64,000 nt of DNA from a bacterium (GTDB taxonomy: Bacteria; UBA8248). Location: assembly GCA_965221165.1 (NCBI GenBank), contig CBDCRP010000003.1, positions 1,664,001-1,728,000 of the forward strand, in the 5' to 3' direction. Each line of letters starts with the position of its first letter. Position 1 is the first letter of the stretch. Below are positions 3,880-64,000 of this stretch, piece after piece. The position numbers and the translations under genes were made by a program. A model generated the notes under the pieces. It worked only from the letters and a program-made list of their open reading frames with translations, was not told the DNA's origin and did no database searches.

Positions 3880-5033
3880 TCGGCGCAGCCGCTATCAGAA
3901 AATCCCTTGAAACCCGAAAAGATGAAATCATCGAACAAATCGCCCATGTGGTGAATATCGACTCCCCGACGTTTCCCAATAAGGGAACGAACGCTGTTTC
4001 CTCCCATTTTGCGGAAAAATACCTTGAAATGGGGGCCGAAGTGGAGATGATTCCAGGCACGCATGAAACGGGAGATCATCTTTTGGCGACGTTTCATGGC
4101 GCAAGAAAAAACGGCCCCCATATATTCCTGGTCGGGCATTGCGACACCGTTTTTGCAGAGGGAACCGCCGCGCAACGGCCGTTCACCATAAAAGACGGGA
4201 TGGCCTACGGCCCCGGGGTGGTTGATATGAAAGGATGTCTGGTGGTTTGCCAATTCGTGATGGAAGCGTTACTGGCCGAAGGGTTCGAAGAGTTCACGAA
4301 AATTCAAATTTTATACGACACCGATGAAGAACGCGGGAACCCCTCATCGAGAAAAGTGATAGAGCGAATCGGAAGAGACGCCGCCGCCGCGTTGATAATC
4401 GAGTCCGGCCGTGCAAACGGCTCCATCGTATCTTCGAGGAAAGGAAGTTGCTACGGGAAATTGCTCGTCAGCGGCGTCTCGGCCCATGCCGGCGTTGACC
4501 CTCAAAGAGGCAGAAGCGCTGTTCATGAGCTCGCCCACAATATGGTAGCCATCCAAAACCTGGAGCGAGGAGGCGGCACCATCAACATCACCGGTCTCTC
4601 AGGTGGGTACAGGCCGCATATCGTGGCGGATGAGGCTTCTTGCCACATTGAAGTGCGCGCGGAACGTCAGACAACCCTCGATTCCATGACGGATGAACTG
4701 CACCGCATAACTTCCGAACCCCACATCGAGGGAACAAGCCTGGAATTCAAAAAAATCAGCGGAAGACCCGCCATGGAATTCAACCACAGGACGGAAAAGC
4801 TCTTGTCCGCCGCGGCGGAAATCGCACAGGAGGCGGGCGTCAAATTTCAGTACGGCCCCACCGGCGGAGGTTCCGATGGAAATTATCTCTCCCCTCTCGG
4901 AGTCGCCGTTCTCGACGGATTAGGTCCTGTAGGAGGAAATTTACATACGGATGAAGAATACCTGGAACTCGACTCCATCGCCCCAAGAGGCGCGCTGCTC
5001 GGAGGGTTGCTTGAAAGTTTATCCTCACGGTGA
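3876..5033 (+). CDS. M20 family metallopeptidase (carboxypeptidase G2-like)
   Basis: GHCDTV, GPGVVDMKG, DEERG, SAHAG, GGGSDGN, HTDEEY; ATGA overlap with upstream gene. Confidence 0.92.
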   Translation: MIGAAAIRKSLETRKDEIIEQIAHVVNIDSPTFPNKGTNAVSSHFAEKYLEMGAEVEMIPGTHETGDHLLATFHGARKNGPHIFLVGHCDTVFAEGTAAQRPFTIKDGMAYGPGVVDMKGCLVVCQFVMEALLAEGFEEFTKIQILYDTDEERGNPSSRKVIERIGRDAAAALIIESGRANGSIVSSRKGSCYGKLLVSGVSAHAGVDPQRGRSAVHELAHNMVAIQNLERGGGTINITGLSGGYRPHIVADEASCHIEVRAERQTTLDSMTDELHRITSEPHIEGTSLEFKKISGRPAMEFNHRTEKLLSAAAEIAQEAGVKFQYGPTGGGSDGNYLSPLGVAVLDGLGPVGGNLHTDEEYLELDSIAPRGALLGGLLESLSSR

Positions 5034-8312: not shown

Positions 8313-8942
8313 TTATCCCTGGTCCATCGTTCCAGAACTTGACCAAGACAAAACGGACACTTTCATTTGGGTGGTCGGCTTATGTGCAGTTGATTTCCTT
8401 TGAAGTGTGCGGCGGATAATGCCGATCGCCTGATTGCTGCTCCAATCCGTCACTCCCACCACCCAAGCGACTAATTGCTGCTCGCGGTCGATGAGGTACA
8501 CCGTCGGCACGTAGCGCACATTGTGCATACGGCGAGACGCCCAGTTCTGATCGTGGAAAATCGGATAGTTCAACTTCTTGTTCTTGGCCCATTTTTGCAC
8601 AAACCCAGGGCCGGCCCTATCCACGGAAACAGCCAGAACCGTAAAACCCTCGTCCTCATATTTTTTCTGGAGGGCCGAAAACTTGGGCATCTCCTCCTCG
8701 CACAAAGGACACCATGTGGCGAAAAAAACGAGCATCACCACTTTGCCTTTAAAATCACTGAGTTTGTGCTGCTTTCCCGTGAGGTCCGGATATTGAAAAT
8801 CAGGGGGCGGCACGGAGTTTTCAGGAGCCATTCGCAAGACGTTAAAACGACTTTGGGCATCCGCCGGATCAGACGACACTGTCAGGAACAAGAGAACACC
8901 AAGAGCGAGGAAACACAGTCTGGAGAATGGAATTGGTCGCAT
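8313..8942 (-). CDS. TlpA/ResA-like exported thiol-disulfide oxidoreductase
   Basis: Signal peptide, LSDFKGKVV, FFATWCPLC (CxxC), VPT cis-Pro loop; AAGGGAG RBS before ATG 8942. Confidence 0.88.
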   Translation of the reverse strand: MRPIPFSRLCFLALGVLLFLTVSSDPADAQSRFNVLRMAPENSVPPPDFQYPDLTGKQHKLSDFKGKVVMLVFFATWCPLCEEEMPKFSALQKKYEDEGFTVLAVSVDRAGPGFVQKWAKNKKLNYPIFHDQNWASRRMHNVRYVPTVYLIDREQQLVAWVVGVTDWSSNQAIGIIRRTLQRKSTAHKPTTQMKVSVLSWSSSGTMDQG

Positions 8943-9031
8943 GGTGCTCCCTTGTGTAGACTTAAAATAGCCCAATGCAAGATAGCATATTTCAGATTAT
9001 TCGAGCCAAAGGAGACTTGCAATACATTTTG

Positions 9032-9910
9032 ATGGAAAGGAAACCGGCCATGTGGCTCATCTTCGCCATGCTATCGCTTCTCATCCTTCATGTTTCCGCA
9101 CAGGGCGCACTAAATACCTGCGAGAGAGATTCCAAACTTATCAAAATCCCTGCGGGCCCTTTTTCGATGGGCAGCGACAGGGCCGAGCGTGATTATGGTT
9201 ATCGAATAGGCAGCCGCGCCGCGCGCAGATGGCGCTGGTTCGACAACTGGGAACTTCCGCGCAAACGCGTCGTCTTGGCCGAATACTTTATTGACAGGAA
9301 CCTGACGACTCAGGCCGAATACCGCCGCTTCGTGTGGGAGAACGGCCATCGCGCTCCTTTCATTTCGCCCAAAAATTATAAACATCAAGGCTATCTCGTT
9401 CATTCCTATGAGTCCGTGCGGCGCTATCTTTGGGGGAAAAACAAAGACGGTCGGCCGACATACTCGAAAGGTCTAGCGAATCATCCCGTCGTGCTCGTAA
9501 GTCAATCAGACGCGCAGGCCTACTGCATCTGGCGGGGCGGAAAAGCTCCAGCGAGATACCGACTGCCCACGGAGGCGGAATGGGAAAAGGCGGCGCGCGG
9601 CGCCGATGCCAGATATTTCCCCTGGGGCAACACCTTCGATCCCGAACGCCTGAACTTTGGCTACAAGGTGCACGCCACAACGCCCGTTGGCACGTATCCG
9701 AAGGGCAAAAGCCCGTATGGCGTGCTCGACATGGCGGGAAACGTCTTCGAGTGGACATCCACCCCGTTTTCAAAATCAAAAGCCACGATGAAAGGGGGTG
9801 GGTCCTGGGACGATCAGCCGGGTATCACGCGGGCAGCCGCTCGCCATGGACGGGACCCGAAGGCCCGGCACCTACTTTTTGGTTTTCGGTGTGTTTGCGT
9901 AAACCCATAA
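9032..9910 (+). CDS. Formylglycine-generating enzyme (SUMF1/FGE-sulfatase) domain protein, exported
   Basis: GPFSMGS, HPVVLVS, RLPTEAEWEKAARG, DMAGNVFEW, GFRC; start may be 9050. Confidence 0.9.
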   Translation: MERKPAMWLIFAMLSLLILHVSAQGALNTCERDSKLIKIPAGPFSMGSDRAERDYGYRIGSRAARRWRWFDNWELPRKRVVLAEYFIDRNLTTQAEYRRFVWENGHRAPFISPKNYKHQGYLVHSYESVRRYLWGKNKDGRPTYSKGLANHPVVLVSQSDAQAYCIWRGGKAPARYRLPTEAEWEKAARGADARYFPWGNTFDPERLNFGYKVHATTPVGTYPKGKSPYGVLDMAGNVFEWTSTPFSKSKATMKGGGSWDDQPGITRAAARHGRDPKARHLLFGFRCVCVNP

Positions 9911-10085
9911 GACCAAATGACCCATGAAACATTGCCGATATCGTCAGAGTCACAAAATAGTTACATTCATCCATACTCGCTTGATGAAGGAATGCGCGTC
10001 CAGACAGGAAAATGCTTGAAGACCCTTCTTGCACATTCCTCATATAACTGAGAATCTCCTTCCCTTATCATCAGGGGAGCACGTC

Positions 10086-10685
10086 ATGGCTTGGATAGAA
10101 CCTATTTCTCCGGATTCCGCGGAGGGAACCACAAAAAAAATTATAGAAGGTCTGCGTAAGGCGAAAAAACCAATTCCCAAGATATTTCTTCAGATGGGCA
10201 GAAGGCCCGATGTTTTGGCCGGTCGCGAAATGCTCCGCAGTTCGGTCCATGGCGGCTCCAGCCTCGGAACGAGGCGGGAGGAATTGCTCGCCTTTTATGT
10301 GGCGGCTCATGGGGGGTGATACGGCTGAGCGATGAACCACGGACAGTTGTTCCGTGACGCGTGCGATGATGCCTCCATCGCTGAAGTAGGCCAGGTATTA
10401 GACGAGCCAAAACGCGCGAGAATTCTCGACCCTGCCGACCGCGCCATGCTCGCCTATGCGGAAAAAATGACCCATACGCCTCATCAAATGAAAAAAACAG
10501 ACATCGAGCGCTTAAGGTGTGCCGGCTTCAGCGAGGAAAACATCGTCGACATCATCGCGGCTGCGGCTTACAGAAACTTCGCCAATTCGATCAACTACGC
10601 CTACGGACACGTAGAGCAAAATCCCAAAGGCCCAAAGGAGCTGAAATCGGCCATTCAGAGGTTAAAAAAGAAAATTCGTGGATAA
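10086..10685 (+). CDS. AhpD/carboxymuconolactone-decarboxylase-like protein with two in-frame UGA (predicted Sec, UxxU motif)
   Basis: ORFs 10029-10319 and 10332-10685 are in one frame joined by TGA-TAC-GGC-TGA-GCG: REELLAFYVAAHGG-U-YG-U-AMNHG matches the AhpD-like E...CxxC..H motif; GGGGAG RBS before 10086; hairpin at 10338-10356. Confidence 0.85.
10338..10356 (+). promoter_or_regulatory. Candidate bacterial SECIS hairpin for the UxxU gene
   Basis: CACGG-AC-AGTT-GT-T-CCGTG; loop starts 16 nt after the second UGA and 25 nt after the first, G at second loop position. Confidence 0.6.
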
Positions 10686-11421
10686 AAAATCTCACGCGCT
10701 CTCATCTATTTCCTATCTGGGCTTGTTCATATCGAGCGCTTGCGCGCTGGCCGCTGTGGCGTCAGGGCTGGGTCATCGCTGGGGCTTATGGCATTTCAGC
10801 ATGGGATTTCAGATTTTCAAGGCCGCATCCATCATTGCGTTGATCTCCGTGGCCGTCTCCATAACGGGAGGCCTGTTTGCCCTGCGCGACGCTTCGAAGT
10901 TCAAGACTTCGGCCGCCGCCCTCGGCATCGCATTAGGTTTCACCGTAGCGGGCTTTCTTCACGCACACATGCAAATCTCGAGACGGGTACCCAAGATTCA
11001 CGACATCACGACAGACACTCAAAACCCGCCCTCTTTTCAAGACATCCTCCCACTGAGAAAAAGAGCGAAAAACCCACCCGCTTATGAGGGCATACGCATC
11101 GCACGGCTCCAGAAAAAAATGTATCCGGATATCAAGCCACTCATTTCCCGAGATTCAAAAGAGGAAATTTTCAAACGCGCTTTGGCCGCTGTACGCGCCA
11201 TCGGTTGGCAAGTGGTGACGTCAAAACCAGCCGAAGGACGTATCGAGGCGTATGACAATACTTTTTGGTATGGCTTTATCGATGACATCGTAATCCGGAT
11301 AACGTCGAATAATGGGATGACGCGCCTCGACATCCGCTCGAAATCCCGTGTGGGCGTAGGCGACATAGGCGCGAATGCCAGGCGAATTCGCACCTTTTTC
11401 GAAAAGCTAAAAGTAAGATAG
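10678..11421 (+). CDS. DUF1499 family membrane protein
   Basis: Three N-terminal hydrophobic helices, IHDITTD..NPP.F, YPDIKPL, GFIDDIVIR, RSKSRVGVGDIGANARRI. Confidence 0.85.
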   Translation: MDKKSHALSSISYLGLFISSACALAAVASGLGHRWGLWHFSMGFQIFKAASIIALISVAVSITGGLFALRDASKFKTSAAALGIALGFTVAGFLHAHMQISRRVPKIHDITTDTQNPPSFQDILPLRKRAKNPPAYEGIRIARLQKKMYPDIKPLISRDSKEEIFKRALAAVRAIGWQVVTSKPAEGRIEAYDNTFWYGFIDDIVIRITSNNGMTRLDIRSKSRVGVGDIGANARRIRTFFEKLKVR

Positions 11422-11497
11422 ACTGGGATATTCCACTTTTGTGATCGGGGATTCGCCATGAAATGATGATGTTTTGAGCATCGTATTGAGGACGCTA

Positions 11498-13816
11498 ATG
11501 TCTGAATACCTAATATTAGGCAAATCCATACCAAGACTCGATTCCGCAGAGAAAGTTTCCGGATTCGCCGATTTTGGAGATGACTTGCGCAGGCCCGGTT
11601 GCCTCACTGCGAAATTGCTCTTGAGTCCGCACCCCCATGCCCAAATCAAAAAAATCGACACCACCGATGCTTTGAAGATTCCCGGCGTACACGCTGTCGT
11701 CACGGCGGAGAATTTCTCCGGCATCCGCCACGGCAGGCTCGTGCGCGATGAACCGCTGCTCGCCATCGACAAAGTGCTTCACATCGGCGAGCGCGTGGCC
11801 GCCGTGGCCGCCGAAACCCCGGAAGCCGCGCAGGCCGCACTCAAGAAAATTCATGTAGATTATGAAGTGCTCCCCGCCGTATTCACGACAGACGACGCCC
11901 TGAAAGATGACGCTCCCCTCCTCCATGACTCCCTGGATGATTACACGTCGTTTCCGGGTATCGTGCGGTATGGAAACGTAGCCACCGATATTCTTATCCG
12001 ATCGGGCGACCCAATAGAGGAAGCGCTCACTCGGGCTGATTTCGTTTTCGAGGACGAATACGAAACGCCCCGCGTTCACCAGAATTATCTCGAACCCCGC
12101 GCCATGCTCGCGGAACCCGGACCCGAGGACAGCACGGTAGTCTATTCACCCACCCAGGCGGCTTTCGTGGTGCGCGCTATCGCTTCGGAAATACTCGAAC
12201 TTCCCATGAACAAACTACGCGTTGTGAGCACTCATGTAGGAGGCGCTTTCGGTGGCAAATCCCAACATCTACTGGAAGCCCTAGCCGTTCTTTTGAGCAG
12301 AAAATCGAACCGGCCCGTTCAACTGACTCTCAATCGCGAAGAGGAAACCATCACCGGAAACCCGAGGCACGCATACCGTATGCGCTATCGCACAGGCGTG
12401 ACGCGGGAAGGAAAAATCATCGGGCGCCACGTGCAAATAACATCGAACAACGGTGCCTATTGCATGACGGGTCCGATGGTGCTTGGAAAATCCTGCTACA
12501 CCAGTACGGGACCATACAAAATTCCCAATGTCAGGGTCGATGGTCTACTCGTATATACGAACCTTCCCCCCAGCGGTTCTTATCGGGGTCTGGGCGTGGC
12601 ACAGGTCGCTTTCGCCTGCGAGCGACATACTGACCGCATTGCTTCAGAATTAGGAATGGACCCACTCACTTTTCGGCTCCTTAATGCGATGGGTGAAAAC
12701 GATGCGGACCCCGCCGGTACGATTTTACAAAGCGTGAGCATAAAGGAAACGCTTGAACGCGCGGGCCAAAAAGCGGGCTGGGGGAAGCAGAAGGAGGAAA
12801 ATCAGGGCCTCAGAATCAGGCGGGGTTTGGGCATCGGCTGCGCGCGCTATCCCACGGGTGGAGGGGCATCGGGCGCCGTGGTGAAGGTGAACGAGGATGG
12901 GGGCTTGGCTGTATTGGCCGGCTGTTCCGACCTGGGCACGGGCGCGGCTACCTTGATGGCGCAGGTGGCGGCTGAGGTTCTGCAATCCGACATCGAAAAA
13001 GTTAGCGTTCGTATCGCCGACACCGAAACCACGCCCTTCGACTCCATCACCGCGGGTAGCCGCACCACGTTCAACATGGCGCACGCAGTGCGCATGGCGG
13101 CGGAAGATGCTCGCGAGCAATTGCTTCGCCAAGCGGCGCGCATGCTCGAATCATCCCCTGAGGACCTGGACATCGGCGATGGAAATATATTCATGCGCGC
13201 AGCGCCCTCGCGCGCCATTCCGTTCGCTGAAGTGGCGTATTCCGCTGTATGGAAAGGCGACGGACCCGTGACCGGTCGCGGTGCCTACCGTGGAGAGAAT
13301 CCTCCTCATCGGACGGATAATGTGCGTGGCCATCCAGAGCCCTCGAGACCCGGACCAGAATTTGCCACCCAAATCGCAGAAGTCGAAGTCGACACCGAGA
13401 CAGGAGAAACCAAGGTCTTAAGAATCACCAGCGCGCAAGATGTGGGCTTCGCCATGAACCCCCTCACCCTGAACGGACAGATAGAGGGCGGCATTGCGCA
13501 GGGGCTGGGCTGGGCTCTGGCCGAGCAGATTCACCATGAAAAGGGCGTCATCGTTCATGCGGATTTCGAGAGCCAACTCAACCCCACGAGTTTGGATGTC
13601 TCGGAAATCGAAAGCGTGATTGTGGAATCGCCCGATGTGGAAGGTCCCTTTGGAGCCAAGGGAGCGGGGGAAATGCCGCTCATTCCAGCGGCGCCCGCGA
13701 TTGCCAACGCGATCGCCGATGCCATCGGGGATCCGGCCAACCCGAACCTCAACAACCTGCCTATCGCACCGGAGGACATCGTTCGCGCGGTTCGCGAACA
13801 AAACGCTTCCGAATAA
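11498..13816 (+). CDS. Xanthine dehydrogenase family molybdopterin-binding (large) subunit
   Basis: SPHPHAQI, YLEPRA, VGGAFGGK, SYRGLG, GSRTT, GQIEGG, GAKGAGE. Confidence 0.93.
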   Translation: MSEYLILGKSIPRLDSAEKVSGFADFGDDLRRPGCLTAKLLLSPHPHAQIKKIDTTDALKIPGVHAVVTAENFSGIRHGRLVRDEPLLAIDKVLHIGERVAAVAAETPEAAQAALKKIHVDYEVLPAVFTTDDALKDDAPLLHDSLDDYTSFPGIVRYGNVATDILIRSGDPIEEALTRADFVFEDEYETPRVHQNYLEPRAMLAEPGPEDSTVVYSPTQAAFVVRAIASEILELPMNKLRVVSTHVGGAFGGKSQHLLEALAVLLSRKSNRPVQLTLNREEETITGNPRHAYRMRYRTGVTREGKIIGRHVQITSNNGAYCMTGPMVLGKSCYTSTGPYKIPNVRVDGLLVYTNLPPSGSYRGLGVAQVAFACERHTDRIASELGMDPLTFRLLNAMGENDADPAGTILQSVSIKETLERAGQKAGWGKQKEENQGLRIRRGLGIGCARYPTGGGASGAVVKVNEDGGLAVLAGCSDLGTGAATLMAQVAAEVLQSDIEKVSVRIADTETTPFDSITAGSRTTFNMAHAVRMAAEDAREQLLRQAARMLESSPEDLDIGDGNIFMRAAPSRAIPFAEVAYSAVWKGDGPVTGRGAYRGENPPHRTDNVRGHPEPSRPGPEFATQIAEVEVDTETGETKVLRITSAQDVGFAMNPLTLNGQIEGGIAQGLGWALAEQIHHEKGVIVHADFESQLNPTSLDVSEIESVIVESPDVEGPFGAKGAGEMPLIPAAPAIANAIADAIGDPANPNLNNLPIAPEDIVRAVREQNASE

Positions 13817-13821
13817 GCTTC

Positions 13822-15102
13822 TTAGTTTTTCAGTTCAAATTTCTCGTCATAAACATAAAAGTTCGATGACGCCGCGATATCTCGCGCCTGTGTGATGAGC
13901 TTGCGCGACAATCTTGAAATGTACGAATTCTTGAGAAACTCGACATAGAAATTGTAGTAAAAAGCATCGGGCCGCACATGAACGCGCACCCTGAGCCTCG
14001 CCGCACCCTCGGCTCGTCCTCTTCTGTATCGAAACGTGATGGATTTTTGAGGGGGAATGCGCGTGTCATAGATTTCGCGGCTAAAATCAGGCGAAAGTTT
14101 CCGCTCGATCACATTAATCTGCCTTGACCCCGGTATGGTTCGCCCACTCTTATTCTCCAGCTCGGAGATGACATCCACAGAAGGCGTAATATAGGTAGGG
14201 AAATAATGCCCGGCACCTGAGTTCGTGAGCTTAATTTCGGCCGTGACGATTTGCCCGGGCGCTTCCTCCCCGAGCGTGACGTCTATTTGCACGGCGCCCT
14301 GGGTCATATCCTTATCATGTATGCCTCGCCATAGATGTGCACGCCCGGGCATGTGACAACTCTGGCAAGCAATGCCCTCTTTGCCCCAAAGCGAGTTTTT
14401 CCACTCGTTGTACGTGTTCTGAATCGATTTCCCGTTCGGCCCGGGAAACGTGTGCTGGTGGCAACCCATGCAAAATTCAGCACGGCTGAAAAAAAGCGTG
14501 CGTTCTACCCCTGCGTGTGGACCACTCCTTGTCGTGTCATCCACCCCTTCGGGGGTTTCCTTCTTGGGTGGACCGTACACACGCCAATCACGCACATGGC
14601 ATGCGGCGCAGGCCAGTCCGTGCATCTCCAGTTTTCGATCGTGGATTGGGTTTTTCCGCCAATTCGCAAAAGGACCCGCACCCAACTTCGCGCGCTTCTG
14701 CTGTTCCGCCAAAGGCGCATGGCACTCATTACAACTTTGTGCTTCCTCGGGACTTGTTTTCCACATATCGACGAGTTGTCCATAGATGCCCGGGCTCATC
14801 GCGTTGGCGTGAAGCGTGGTCTTCCATTGTTTGTACTGATCGAGATGACAACTCCCGCAACTCTCGGGCAAAAGAGAACGCTCAGCGCCTTTGTATGATT
14901 TCGGCACCTCACCCATCGGGGACAAAGGGTAGGCGAAATGCTCCTTCACGAAATCCCGCCAATGTTTCCATTTGCCGGGAATCTCTTTTTCTTCCGCCGT
15001 CTCGATGGAGGAGAAGGCGAATCCATTTGATGTCTTCTGAAAAATAAAAGAGAGGACGAGAAAGTAAATAGCAACGATTATAACCATGAAATTCAAGCGC
15101 AT
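13822..15102 (-). CDS. Multiheme c-type cytochrome (5 CxxCH motifs)
   Basis: CGSCH, CNECH, CAACH, CMGCH, CQSCH; N-terminal hydrophobic anchor; NSGAGHYFPT. Confidence 0.9.
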   Translation of the reverse strand: MRLNFMVIIVAIYFLVLSFIFQKTSNGFAFSSIETAEEKEIPGKWKHWRDFVKEHFAYPLSPMGEVPKSYKGAERSLLPESCGSCHLDQYKQWKTTLHANAMSPGIYGQLVDMWKTSPEEAQSCNECHAPLAEQQKRAKLGAGPFANWRKNPIHDRKLEMHGLACAACHVRDWRVYGPPKKETPEGVDDTTRSGPHAGVERTLFFSRAEFCMGCHQHTFPGPNGKSIQNTYNEWKNSLWGKEGIACQSCHMPGRAHLWRGIHDKDMTQGAVQIDVTLGEEAPGQIVTAEIKLTNSGAGHYFPTYITPSVDVISELENKSGRTIPGSRQINVIERKLSPDFSREIYDTRIPPQKSITFRYRRGRAEGAARLRVRVHVRPDAFYYNFYVEFLKNSYISRLSRKLITQARDIAASSNFYVYDEKFELKN

Positions 15103-63716: not shown

Positions 63717-64000
63717 ATGTCCAGAGTCCCGTTGCTCGGCCGAGAAGGCGCGGAGGGAGAGATCGCGCGCACCTTCGGCATCCTGGGTAACTTCCAGCGC
63801 AGGCAGGTCAATTCCACCCGGGCGACGGCGCACTCCCCGTTTCTCGCCCGCATTTTCTATCCCCTCGTCCAGACCCTGATGCGCGAGGGGCTCGGCACCG
63901 TCCTCTCCTCCAGGATAAAAGAAATCGCCGTCATCAAAACCAGCCGGATGAACGGGTGTGACTACTGACTCGCCCACAACACCGCTCTCGGCCGGGTGCT
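63717..64000 (+). CDS. AhpD/CMD-like protein with CxxU motif (predicted Sec, UGA 63966-63968); runs off the window
   Basis: KEIAVIKTSRMNG-C-DY-U-LAHNTALGRV; AAGGAG RBS; frame open to window end. Confidence 0.85.

Follow-up and report, generated by a model that had tools for sequence, protein, structure and literature searches.

The 64,000-nucleotide (nt) window analysed here is the forward strand of positions 1,664,001 to 1,728,000 of contig CBDCRP010000003.1 in GenBank assembly GCA_965221165.1, from a bacterium of the GTDB lineage Bacteria; UBA8248. About 10,000 nt into the window lies an AhpD-like gene with two in-frame TGA codons at the positions of the two cysteines (Cys) of the family's CxxC motif. 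Under translation table 11 it is split into two open reading frames (ORFs), 10029..10319 and 10332..10685. Translated with TGA as selenocysteine (Sec, U), the gene is a single frame of 199 codons on the forward strand, running from the ATG at 10086-10088 to the TAA at 10683-10685 and interrupted only by the TGAs of codons 78 and 81 (Table 1). The local sequence GGG-TGA-TAC-GGC-TGA-GCG-ATG-AAC-CAC gives the peptide ...AAHGG-U-Y-G-U-AMNHGQLFR..., so that the 199-residue protein carries the motif U78-Y-G-U81-A-M-N-H85.

Table 1. Features of the AhpD-like locus and its neighbours, with coordinates counted within the window.
Feature	Position	Strand	Basis or remark
AhpD-like coding sequence, 199 residues, TGA = Sec at codons 78 and 81	10086..10685	+	TIGR01926, profile, fold, dN/dS
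Shine-Dalgarno-like GGGGAG	10074..10079	+	6 nt 5' of the ATG; from sequence reading alone
First in-frame UGA, codon 78	10317..10319	+	aligns with the first Cys of CxxC; derived Sec site
Second in-frame UGA, codon 81	10326..10328	+	aligns with the second Cys; Sec site common to the CxxU sister clade and paralogues
Candidate SECIS hairpin A	10338..10356	+	7 pairs CACGGAC/G.UCCGUG, bulged U, AGUU loop
Second, weaker stem GCGAUG...CAUCGC	10363..10381	+	3' arm (10376-10381) could pair with 10329-10334 instead, as a lower stem
DUF1499 protein, 247 aa	10678..11421	+	PF07386, 83.5 bits; GTG start overlaps the AhpD-like gene end by 8 nt
Molybdopterin-binding large subunit, xanthine-dehydrogenase / aldehyde-oxidase family, 780 aa	11474..13816	+	PF02738, PF20256, PF01315; third gene of an apparent operon
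FGE-sulfatase-domain protein, 311 aa	8975..9910	+	PF03781, 150.5 bits; EgtB/SenA/OvoA similarity weak, below cut-offs
TlpA/ResA-like thiol:disulfide oxidoreductase (AhpC/TSA-Redoxin fold)	8313..8975	-	divergent from the FGE-sulfatase gene

By hidden Markov model (HMM), alignment and fold, the gene product is a member of the AhpD-like TIGR01926/COG2128 family, with a predicted enzyme activity. With U read as C it scores 90.5 bits against the NCBIfam HMM TIGR01926 ('peroxidase-related enzyme', cut-off 81.8), and a six-frame search of the genome in which TGA counts as a stop finds the same locus at 75.3 bits, below the cut-off. Other NCBIfam models of AhpD-related proteins and selenoproteins match below their cut-offs, and the match to the Pfam family CMD is weak. 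A profile of 30 relatives matches solved AhpD-like proteins (6k40 at 5.2e-23, 3c1l at 2.5e-20): the U78 and U81 columns coincide with the two Cys of the CxxC motif in 6k40 ('c vy ca vsHG') and 3c1l ('cyyc ltaHG'), and H85 with their His. Positions 78 and 81 (U read as C) and H85 are invariant across the aligned sequences. The AlphaFold model, calculated from the alignment of relatives, is all-helical, with ten helices (predicted local distance difference test, pLDDT, 93.7; predicted template modelling score, pTM, 0.88), and places U78 just before helix 79-92 and U81 in the first turn of that helix. The top Foldseek matches are likewise AhpD-like, with template modelling (TM) scores of 0.75 to 6k40 and 0.66-0.75 to 2prr, 3c1l and 2oyo. 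The initial annotation, made from the letters of the window alone, had joined the two ORFs into one 199-residue U-Y-G-U protein, assigned it to the AhpD-like proteins and taken both Cys of the CxxC..H motif to be TGA; sequence and translation, the HMM score, the fold and the Cys at both columns of 6k40 and 3c1l bear it out on each point. Its case hinged on homologues that align Cys with both TGAs, and they do so: solved relatives have C..C, and the sister clade and paralogues have TGC or TGT at the first site.

The genome has a complete SelA/SelB/SelD/tRNA-Sec system, on whose presence the initial annotation had made its proposal depend. The selB (383.8 bits), selA (564.2 bits) and selD (329.8 bits) genes all score above curated cut-offs, and the tRNA-Sec reaches 75.9 bits in Rfam. 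ARAGORN folds the tRNA-Sec with acceptor and T stems of 8 and 5 bp, and its discriminator base is G (G73); this tRNA is the sole one with a UCA anticodon among the 49 tRNAs of the genome, which also include one ordinary 75-nt tRNA-Cys(GCA). The selD gene itself contains an in-frame TGA.

The two-TGA form is conserved within a narrow group of bacteria. A six-frame search of 61 related genomes recovers full-length two-TGA matches in 23 of them, and among the 51 genomes of the phylum 24 carry it: 19 of 23 in the window's genus, four of five in a second genus and the one genome of a third. All 24 orthologues are from one family, the Nitrospinaceae, and at E <= 1e-40 the form is found in none of the 13 genomes of the same family's other six genera and in none of the nine from the other three families. 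Every orthologue reads U-Y-G-U, at 51-96% identity to the window protein. A scan of 185,579 species genomes with the pattern G-U-Y-G-U-x-x-N-H-G returns 24 matches, comprising 20 orthologues, with records that bear Nitrospinota or Nitrospinaceae titles or belong to 'bacterium' metagenome-assembled genomes (MAGs), and four chance matches without a homologous frame. On metagenome contigs, a looser pattern yields at least six homologues among the 119 matches listed, five of them UYGU and one UHGU; the existence of the latter indicates that the middle residues of the U-x-x-U motif are not fixed. The UHGU homologue lies at about position 3972 on the minus strand of metagenome contig L163 and shares 51% identity over 108 residues. 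Contigs from three sequencing runs (X3, X4 and X5) cover both TGAs and the downstream hairpin, and no deviating letter appears between 10284 and 10381 among 40 of 149 rows, a weak comparison that does not bear on expression; another run, X1, may be the source sample. No RNA run was found to contain the locus. A second match flagged with two TGAs, in genome G025, is a CFYU protein followed by a natural TGA stop and not another double-Sec gene.

Purifying selection acts on both sides of the UGAs. Among the 24 orthologues the median pairwise synonymous divergence (dS) is 0.77-0.79. Of their 276 pairs, 223 were usable for codons 1-77 and 264 for codons 82-199; the median ratio of nonsynonymous to synonymous divergence (dN/dS) was 0.141 in the first part and 0.215 in the second, so the relaxed selection on the two halves that the initial annotation had named as a mark against a functional gene is not seen. 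Only one of 26 fourfold-degenerate columns is invariant across the orthologues, and all six bases of the two TGAs are. Conservation of both TGAs and the hairpin in all 24 orthologues means that chance nonsense mutations cannot explain them, in line with the initial view that two random hits on both Cys were improbable. The natural stop is TGA in seven of the 24, so TGA is not reassigned in these genomes. Codon 83 varies (ATG, GTG, GTC, GTA or ATT), which excludes a conserved restart at M83.

Public records hold only the downstream part of the gene. In a collection of 5.8 billion proteins, 24 of the 26 matches at E <= 1e-10 are 117-118 residues long; these fragments begin at the Met after the second TGA, and two are named "hypothetical protein [Nitrospinae bacterium]". 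The full-length form was not found in this collection, and gene callers thus truncate the gene systematically. What the locus holds is a real, conserved variant of a known selenoprotein family; it has two predicted Sec residues and has escaped annotation up to now.

Directly downstream of the second UGA lies a candidate selenocysteine insertion sequence (SECIS), hairpin A, with the apical loop AGUU in the window's genus; the other genera have GGUC or GGUCC. The hairpin encodes H85-G86-Q87-L88-F89-R90, and its apical loop is 16 nt from UGA-81 and 25 nt from UGA-78; the initial annotation had placed the same hairpin at these two distances. From 31 UYGU and CYGU sequences RNAalifold predicts a single helix, hairpin A. 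Across the 23 distinct UYGU sequences, 98.8% of cells are paired in the 7-pair version of this hairpin (alignment columns 31-37 with 42-49), against 21-44% in slid controls, counted for the two-helix structure with the 3' partners moved by 1-3 columns. Synonymous change falls to its gene-wide minimum at codons 81-100, with 0.16 at codon 91 compared with 0.49 on average over the gene. Arg90 is encoded by CGT in 23 of the 24 sequences, and residue 88 by TTG wherever it is Leu; each codon accounts for only 13% of its family's usage in the genome. The conservation of hairpin A goes beyond what the protein alone would impose.

Published rules for bacterial SECIS elements (bSECIS) specify an apical loop of 3-9 nt, a stem of 4-16 bp, a G in the first two loop positions, a distance of 16-37 nt from the UGA and a minimum free energy (MFE) of -7.5 kcal/mol or below (PMC13188914). 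Hairpin A has a 4-nt loop with G at position 2 (AGUU) or at positions 1-2 (GGUC), seven pairs and spacings of 16 and 25 nt, all within these rules. Its MFE is borderline: the bare 19 nt reach -6.7 kcal/mol, and the 21 nt obtained by adding a base at either end reach -8.2 kcal/mol. An Rfam scan of 9000-12000 at E <= 10 returned no SECIS family, only chance-level matches.

The closest relatives of the two-Sec gene carry a single Sec. The sister clade comprises 27 sequences (20 distinct), all C-Y-G-U with TGC or TGT at the first site; these genes are paralogues in the same genomes and the sole copy in some others. The more distant paralogues in the window's genome are C-x-x-U. In most single-TGA AhpD-like genes of this genome, the UGA is followed at 21 nt by a hairpin with a GGUC loop (a spacing read by eye from the sequences at C2:109543, C2:502481 and C3:1727810, the last with a GGCC loop), so that the 16 and 25 nt of the two-Sec gene bracket the local norm.

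The window's genome contains a large expansion of AhpD-like selenoproteins: it has 14 TIGR01926 matches, of which 11 have exactly one in-frame TGA at the CxxU position; such single-Sec paralogues number about a dozen. One AhpD-like (TIGR01926-type) frame, at 63810-64000, is cut by the end of the window; it has one in-frame TGA within the motif C-D-Y-U-L-A-H-N and a GGCC-loop hairpin about 21 nt downstream of it. A scan of the genome for two TGAs 1-5 codons apart in stop-free stretches gave 529 candidates, almost all of them off-frames in this GC-rich genome, and is uninformative without a coding filter. Within the genus, the larger genomes have both the UYGU gene and the CYGU paralogue; the three smallest (3.0-3.1 Mb, 99-100% complete; two closed as a single contig, the third, G008, in 10 contigs) keep only the CYGU paralogue. 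Another genome of the genus without the full UYGU gene, G009, has two copies of the last 85 codons only (C4:127136-127390 and C5:835962-836216; 76% identity, no stops), which may be remnants or assembly duplicates.

In a tree of the 24 two-Sec genes and seven CYGU genes (loci L017-L046 and L065, all kept) with four outgroup paralogues, from which 20 further CYGU sequences (L085-L104) were left out, the two-Sec group needs one change. The most economical account of these sequences is that UxxU arose from a CxxU ancestor by one TGC-to-TGA change at the first site, within the Nitrospinaceae. The downstream RNA may have changed as well. In the CYGU clade, the counterpart of hairpin A has only five pairs and a 9-nt loop, lies 14 nt from the UGA and fails the bSECIS rules. 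The same clade can instead fold a hairpin B, which excludes hairpin A; its stem is GCUUUC/GAAAGC, its loop CGUGCU and its distance from the UGA 24 nt. Hairpin B is paired there in 95.8% of cells, and in four sequences from a single genus an A-U pair replaces one G-C pair. In the two-Sec clade hairpin B is not preserved (63% paired, no better than the slid control). It is possible that the SECIS element was remodelled when the second Sec arose; the direction of the hairpin change is unclear, because a distant FYUT paralogue uses an A-like hairpin.

The reading preferred here, with a probability of about 0.8, is that the gene is functional and its product a selenoprotein, an AhpD-fold thiol/selenol oxidoreductase in which the CxxCxxxH centre of the family has become U78-Y-G-U81-A-M-N-H85. 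Sec would be inserted at both UGAs, a single SECIS element would serve both of them, and the two Sec residues would form a diselenide. SelB carrying Sec-tRNA(Sec) would bind the single hairpin A; UGA-78 would be decoded first, with 25 nt to the apical loop, and three codons on, the same or a second SelB would decode UGA-81 at 16 nt, both spacings lying inside the 16-37 nt window. At UGA-78 the hairpin would be 9 nt further from the decoding centre than at UGA-81, so that the intervening mRNA would be under slack, not strain. The protein would then alternate between diselenol and intramolecular diselenide states of a centre at the N-terminus of helix 79-92, where the i, i+3 spacing in the model argues for a diselenide. 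By analogy with Mycobacterium tuberculosis AhpD, Sec81 would be the attacking and Sec78 the resolving residue, with H85 and E66 as a proton relay, and the substrate may be a peroxide, a peroxiredoxin-type partner or another oxidised substrate.

A more specific proposal is put forward tentatively, at odds just short of even. The Nitrospinaceae may possess a module in which (i) one SelB-binding stem-loop decodes two Sec codons 9 nt apart (25/16 nt), (ii) the product works through an obligate diselenide/diselenol couple, and (iii) the second Sec was gained together with SECIS remodelling, hairpin B being lost and hairpin A tightened to a 4-nt, G-containing loop.

Several observations weigh against the preferred reading. 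Hairpin A has no pair with a change on both sides among the orthologues: the covariation that the initial annotation had proposed as a check yields no compensatory change, which leaves sequence conservation as the support for the hairpin, and part of that conservation is due to the conserved peptide NHG..FR. The fold of the 91-nt region is unexceptional (z = 0.34; 121 of 200 shuffles fold at least as well), 109 of 3000 random genomic 19-mers fold at least as well as the bare hairpin, and the bare 19 nt miss the -7.5 kcal/mol rule, which is reached only with flanking bases. The stem begins 9 nt after UGA-81 and 18 nt after UGA-78. The single origin of the two-Sec group has weak branch support (70/56, and 65% of bootstrap trees). 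Lastly, four genomes of the same genus, 95-100% complete, have no UYGU gene, so the gene is dispensable.

Among the rival explanations, it is unlikely, though worth weighing, that only UGA-81 is read as Sec and that UGA-78 is mostly a termination or attenuation site, or a site of near-cognate read-through as Trp or Cys; the full-length product would then be rare, selenium-gated and equipped with one Sec. UGA-81 is indeed the site common to every CxxU relative. The 25 nt of UGA-78 exceed the 21 nt typical of the genome's other AhpD-like SECIS elements, and in Escherichia coli fdhF the SECIS stem, as the upper stem-loop, begins 11 nt after the UGA (PMC8659212), compared with 18 nt for UGA-78. 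However, all 24 orthologues have TGA as codon 78, against a background in which 25 of 26 fourfold sites vary, and a leaky stop read as Cys or Trp should drift to TGC, TGT or TGG, each one step away. A distance of 25 nt is within the published window (PMC13188914), and the best bSECIS candidate of the sister clade lies 24 nt from its UGA. A pure attenuator, moreover, need not fall exactly on the position of a catalytic Cys.

The prospects are about equally poor for a SECIS element larger than hairpin A, or for two elements, in which a stem of 10329-10334 or 10363-10368 with 10376-10381 would aid the upstream UGA. Low synonymous change continues to codon 100, past hairpin A, and RNAfold of 10310-10400 draws the long-range stem. 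The second stem is paired in 84.1% of cells as a local hairpin and in 88.4% as a long-range stem, and one sequence (L036) has a change on both sides. In both forms, however, its covariation is no better than in shuffles, and the stem is not kept in the other genera, being broken in L037, L038, L040 and L065. Its loop has no G at position 1 or 2, and at 40 and 49 nt from the UGAs it falls outside the 16-37 nt range.

Less probable again is that one or both UGAs are read as Cys, through a tRNA(ReC)-type allo-tRNA or a Cys-charged tRNA-Sec, giving a mature protein with CxxU, UxxC or CxxC. The idea draws on genomes with UXXU-type group 4 hydrogenases, which are enriched in tRNA(ReC)-like genes and in which either UGA might be Cys (PMC13582414). 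In the window's genome, no second SelB-compatible tRNA of the tRNA(ReC) type was found among the 49 tRNAs of a 96.3% complete assembly; the one UCA tRNA is a canonical tRNA-Sec with the 8/5 fold and G discriminator, the tRNA-Cys(GCA) is ordinary, and the next-ranking matches to the Rfam tRNA-Sec model turn out to be ordinary tRNAs for Leu, Ser or Tyr. An allo-tRNA gene overlooked in the missing part of the genome is possible but unsupported. Finally, a pseudogene, a sequencing artefact or two small genes, as the 117-118-residue ORF called from M83 in public data would suggest, can be set aside, given the same two TGAs in 24 genomes from independent assemblies and in metagenome contigs, dN/dS of 0.14 and 0.22 on their two sides, a codon 83 that is not a conserved start, and a full-length product that matches one HMM and folds as one domain.

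A two-Sec AhpD-like protein has partial precedents in three groups of known proteins. SelL is a thioredoxin-fold protein of aquatic eukaryotes with a UxxU motif that forms a diselenide, and its SECIS element lies in the 3'-untranslated region (UTR). The UxxU redox motif is common to SelL and the protein described here, and a diselenide is thus the expected oxidised state. Its all-helical AhpD fold (in the model) and in-frame bacterial SECIS contrast with the thioredoxin fold and 3'-UTR SECIS of SelL, and it does not belong to the SelL family, which is cited as reference 40 in PMC2398784.

The second group is the bacterial selenoproteins themselves. AhpD-like proteins (COG2128/TIGR01926) are listed as CxxU in the Global Ocean Sampling (GOS) paper, a 2022 review and a 2026 review, the last of which gives them one Sec (PMC13188914). 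'AhpD-like 1' (COG2128/YciW, TIGR01926), from the Sargasso Sea and GOS surveys, has the HMM family, the fold, Sec at the second position and a SECIS hairpin directly downstream in common with the present gene; it has one Sec (CxxU), whereas the present gene has a predicted Sec at the first position too. The families for which UxxU is tabulated are Prx-like, MerA-like metal-binding and FmdB-family proteins (PMC13188914), and a 2026 report describes UXXU in group 4 hydrogenases, proposing a single downstream SECIS and suggesting an origin from CXXU (PMC13582414). These families likewise have two UGAs three codons apart, but they are thioredoxin-like, bind metal or provide a Ni ligand, and do not have the all-helical AhpD fold found here; the tRNA(ReC)-like genes in which UXXU-hydrogenase genomes are enriched (PMC13582414) were not found in the window's genome. 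The literature thus agrees with the initial annotation that CxxU AhpD-like selenoproteins are known and UxxU motifs rare (PMC13188914). Its choice of SelL as the classic UxxU case stands as a motif comparison but no longer as the sole one, UxxU now being listed for four prokaryotic families (PMC13188914, PMC13582414). In the main texts covered, no report of a two-Sec AhpD-like or Nitrospina-type UxxU protein was found, and BSepDB entries could include one; the BSepDB paper describes other "Nitrospinota" MAGs as selenoprotein-rich, and the portion of its text available here does not mention UxxU.

The third group is formed by the solved CxxC proteins of the AhpD fold: Deinococcus radiodurans 6k40, Mesorhizobium loti 3c1l, 2prr, 2oyo, 2pfx and M. 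tuberculosis AhpD (1knc). The fold and a CxxCxxxH motif at a helix N-terminus are common to all of them; they have Cys throughout, whereas the present protein has Sec at both positions. The spacing E66-x11-U78-xx-U81-xxx-H85 is presumably that of E118/C130/C133/H137 in M. tuberculosis AhpD. Bmp8 has the AhpD fold and carries out reductive dehalogenation with a redox Cys. This debrominase (6ohi, 6ohj) is a more remote match, with Foldseek E values of 4e-6 to 8e-6, a TM score of 0.68, a profile E value of 2e-4 and only 18% identity.

The genes around the AhpD-like gene fit a redox role and name no substrate. The DUF1499 gene is probably co-translated with the AhpD-like gene, and the order AhpD-like, DUF1499, molybdopterin-binding protein is kept in 19 of 19 loci of the genus; a DUF1499 gene also lies 3' of the orthologue in the third genus (L036). 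For the molybdopterin-binding product, no NCBIfam equivalog reaches its cut-off. Within 1500-nt flanks, an FGE-sulfatase-domain gene is found upstream in nine of the 24 UYGU loci and a TlpA/ResA-like gene near the orthologue in seven (L017-L020, L034, L035 and L065), the window being included in both counts. The TlpA/ResA-like protein is a possible redox partner of the AhpD-like enzyme. It contains no in-frame TGA and matches the 'WAxxUGC' and 'SelL-related redox protein' models weakly, below their thresholds. Further downstream, a 426-residue ORF on the minus strand (13822-15102) matches the model of the multiheme c-type cytochrome (seleno)protein ExtKL weakly (57 bits, cut-off 250). A scan for promoters and terminators at the locus gave nothing useful.

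AhpD-like proteins, among the most abundant marine selenoproteins, appear in the catalogues with a single Sec. With a conserved two-Sec form, the few UxxU centres listed for bacteria come to include a new fold, in an ecologically important host group, the marine nitrite-oxidiser-type Nitrospinaceae. Such genes can be cut short by gene callers and by selenoprotein pipelines built to expect a single UGA per SECIS element. Two questions could be addressed with this compact natural system: the distance from its hairpin at which bacterial SelB can still decode a UGA, and what a diselenide offers over a selenenylsulfide in catalysis. If one hairpin does serve two UGAs as proposed, the Nitrospinaceae would provide a genetically simple system for the spacing tolerance of SelB, together with a bacterial diselenide centre on a non-thioredoxin fold.

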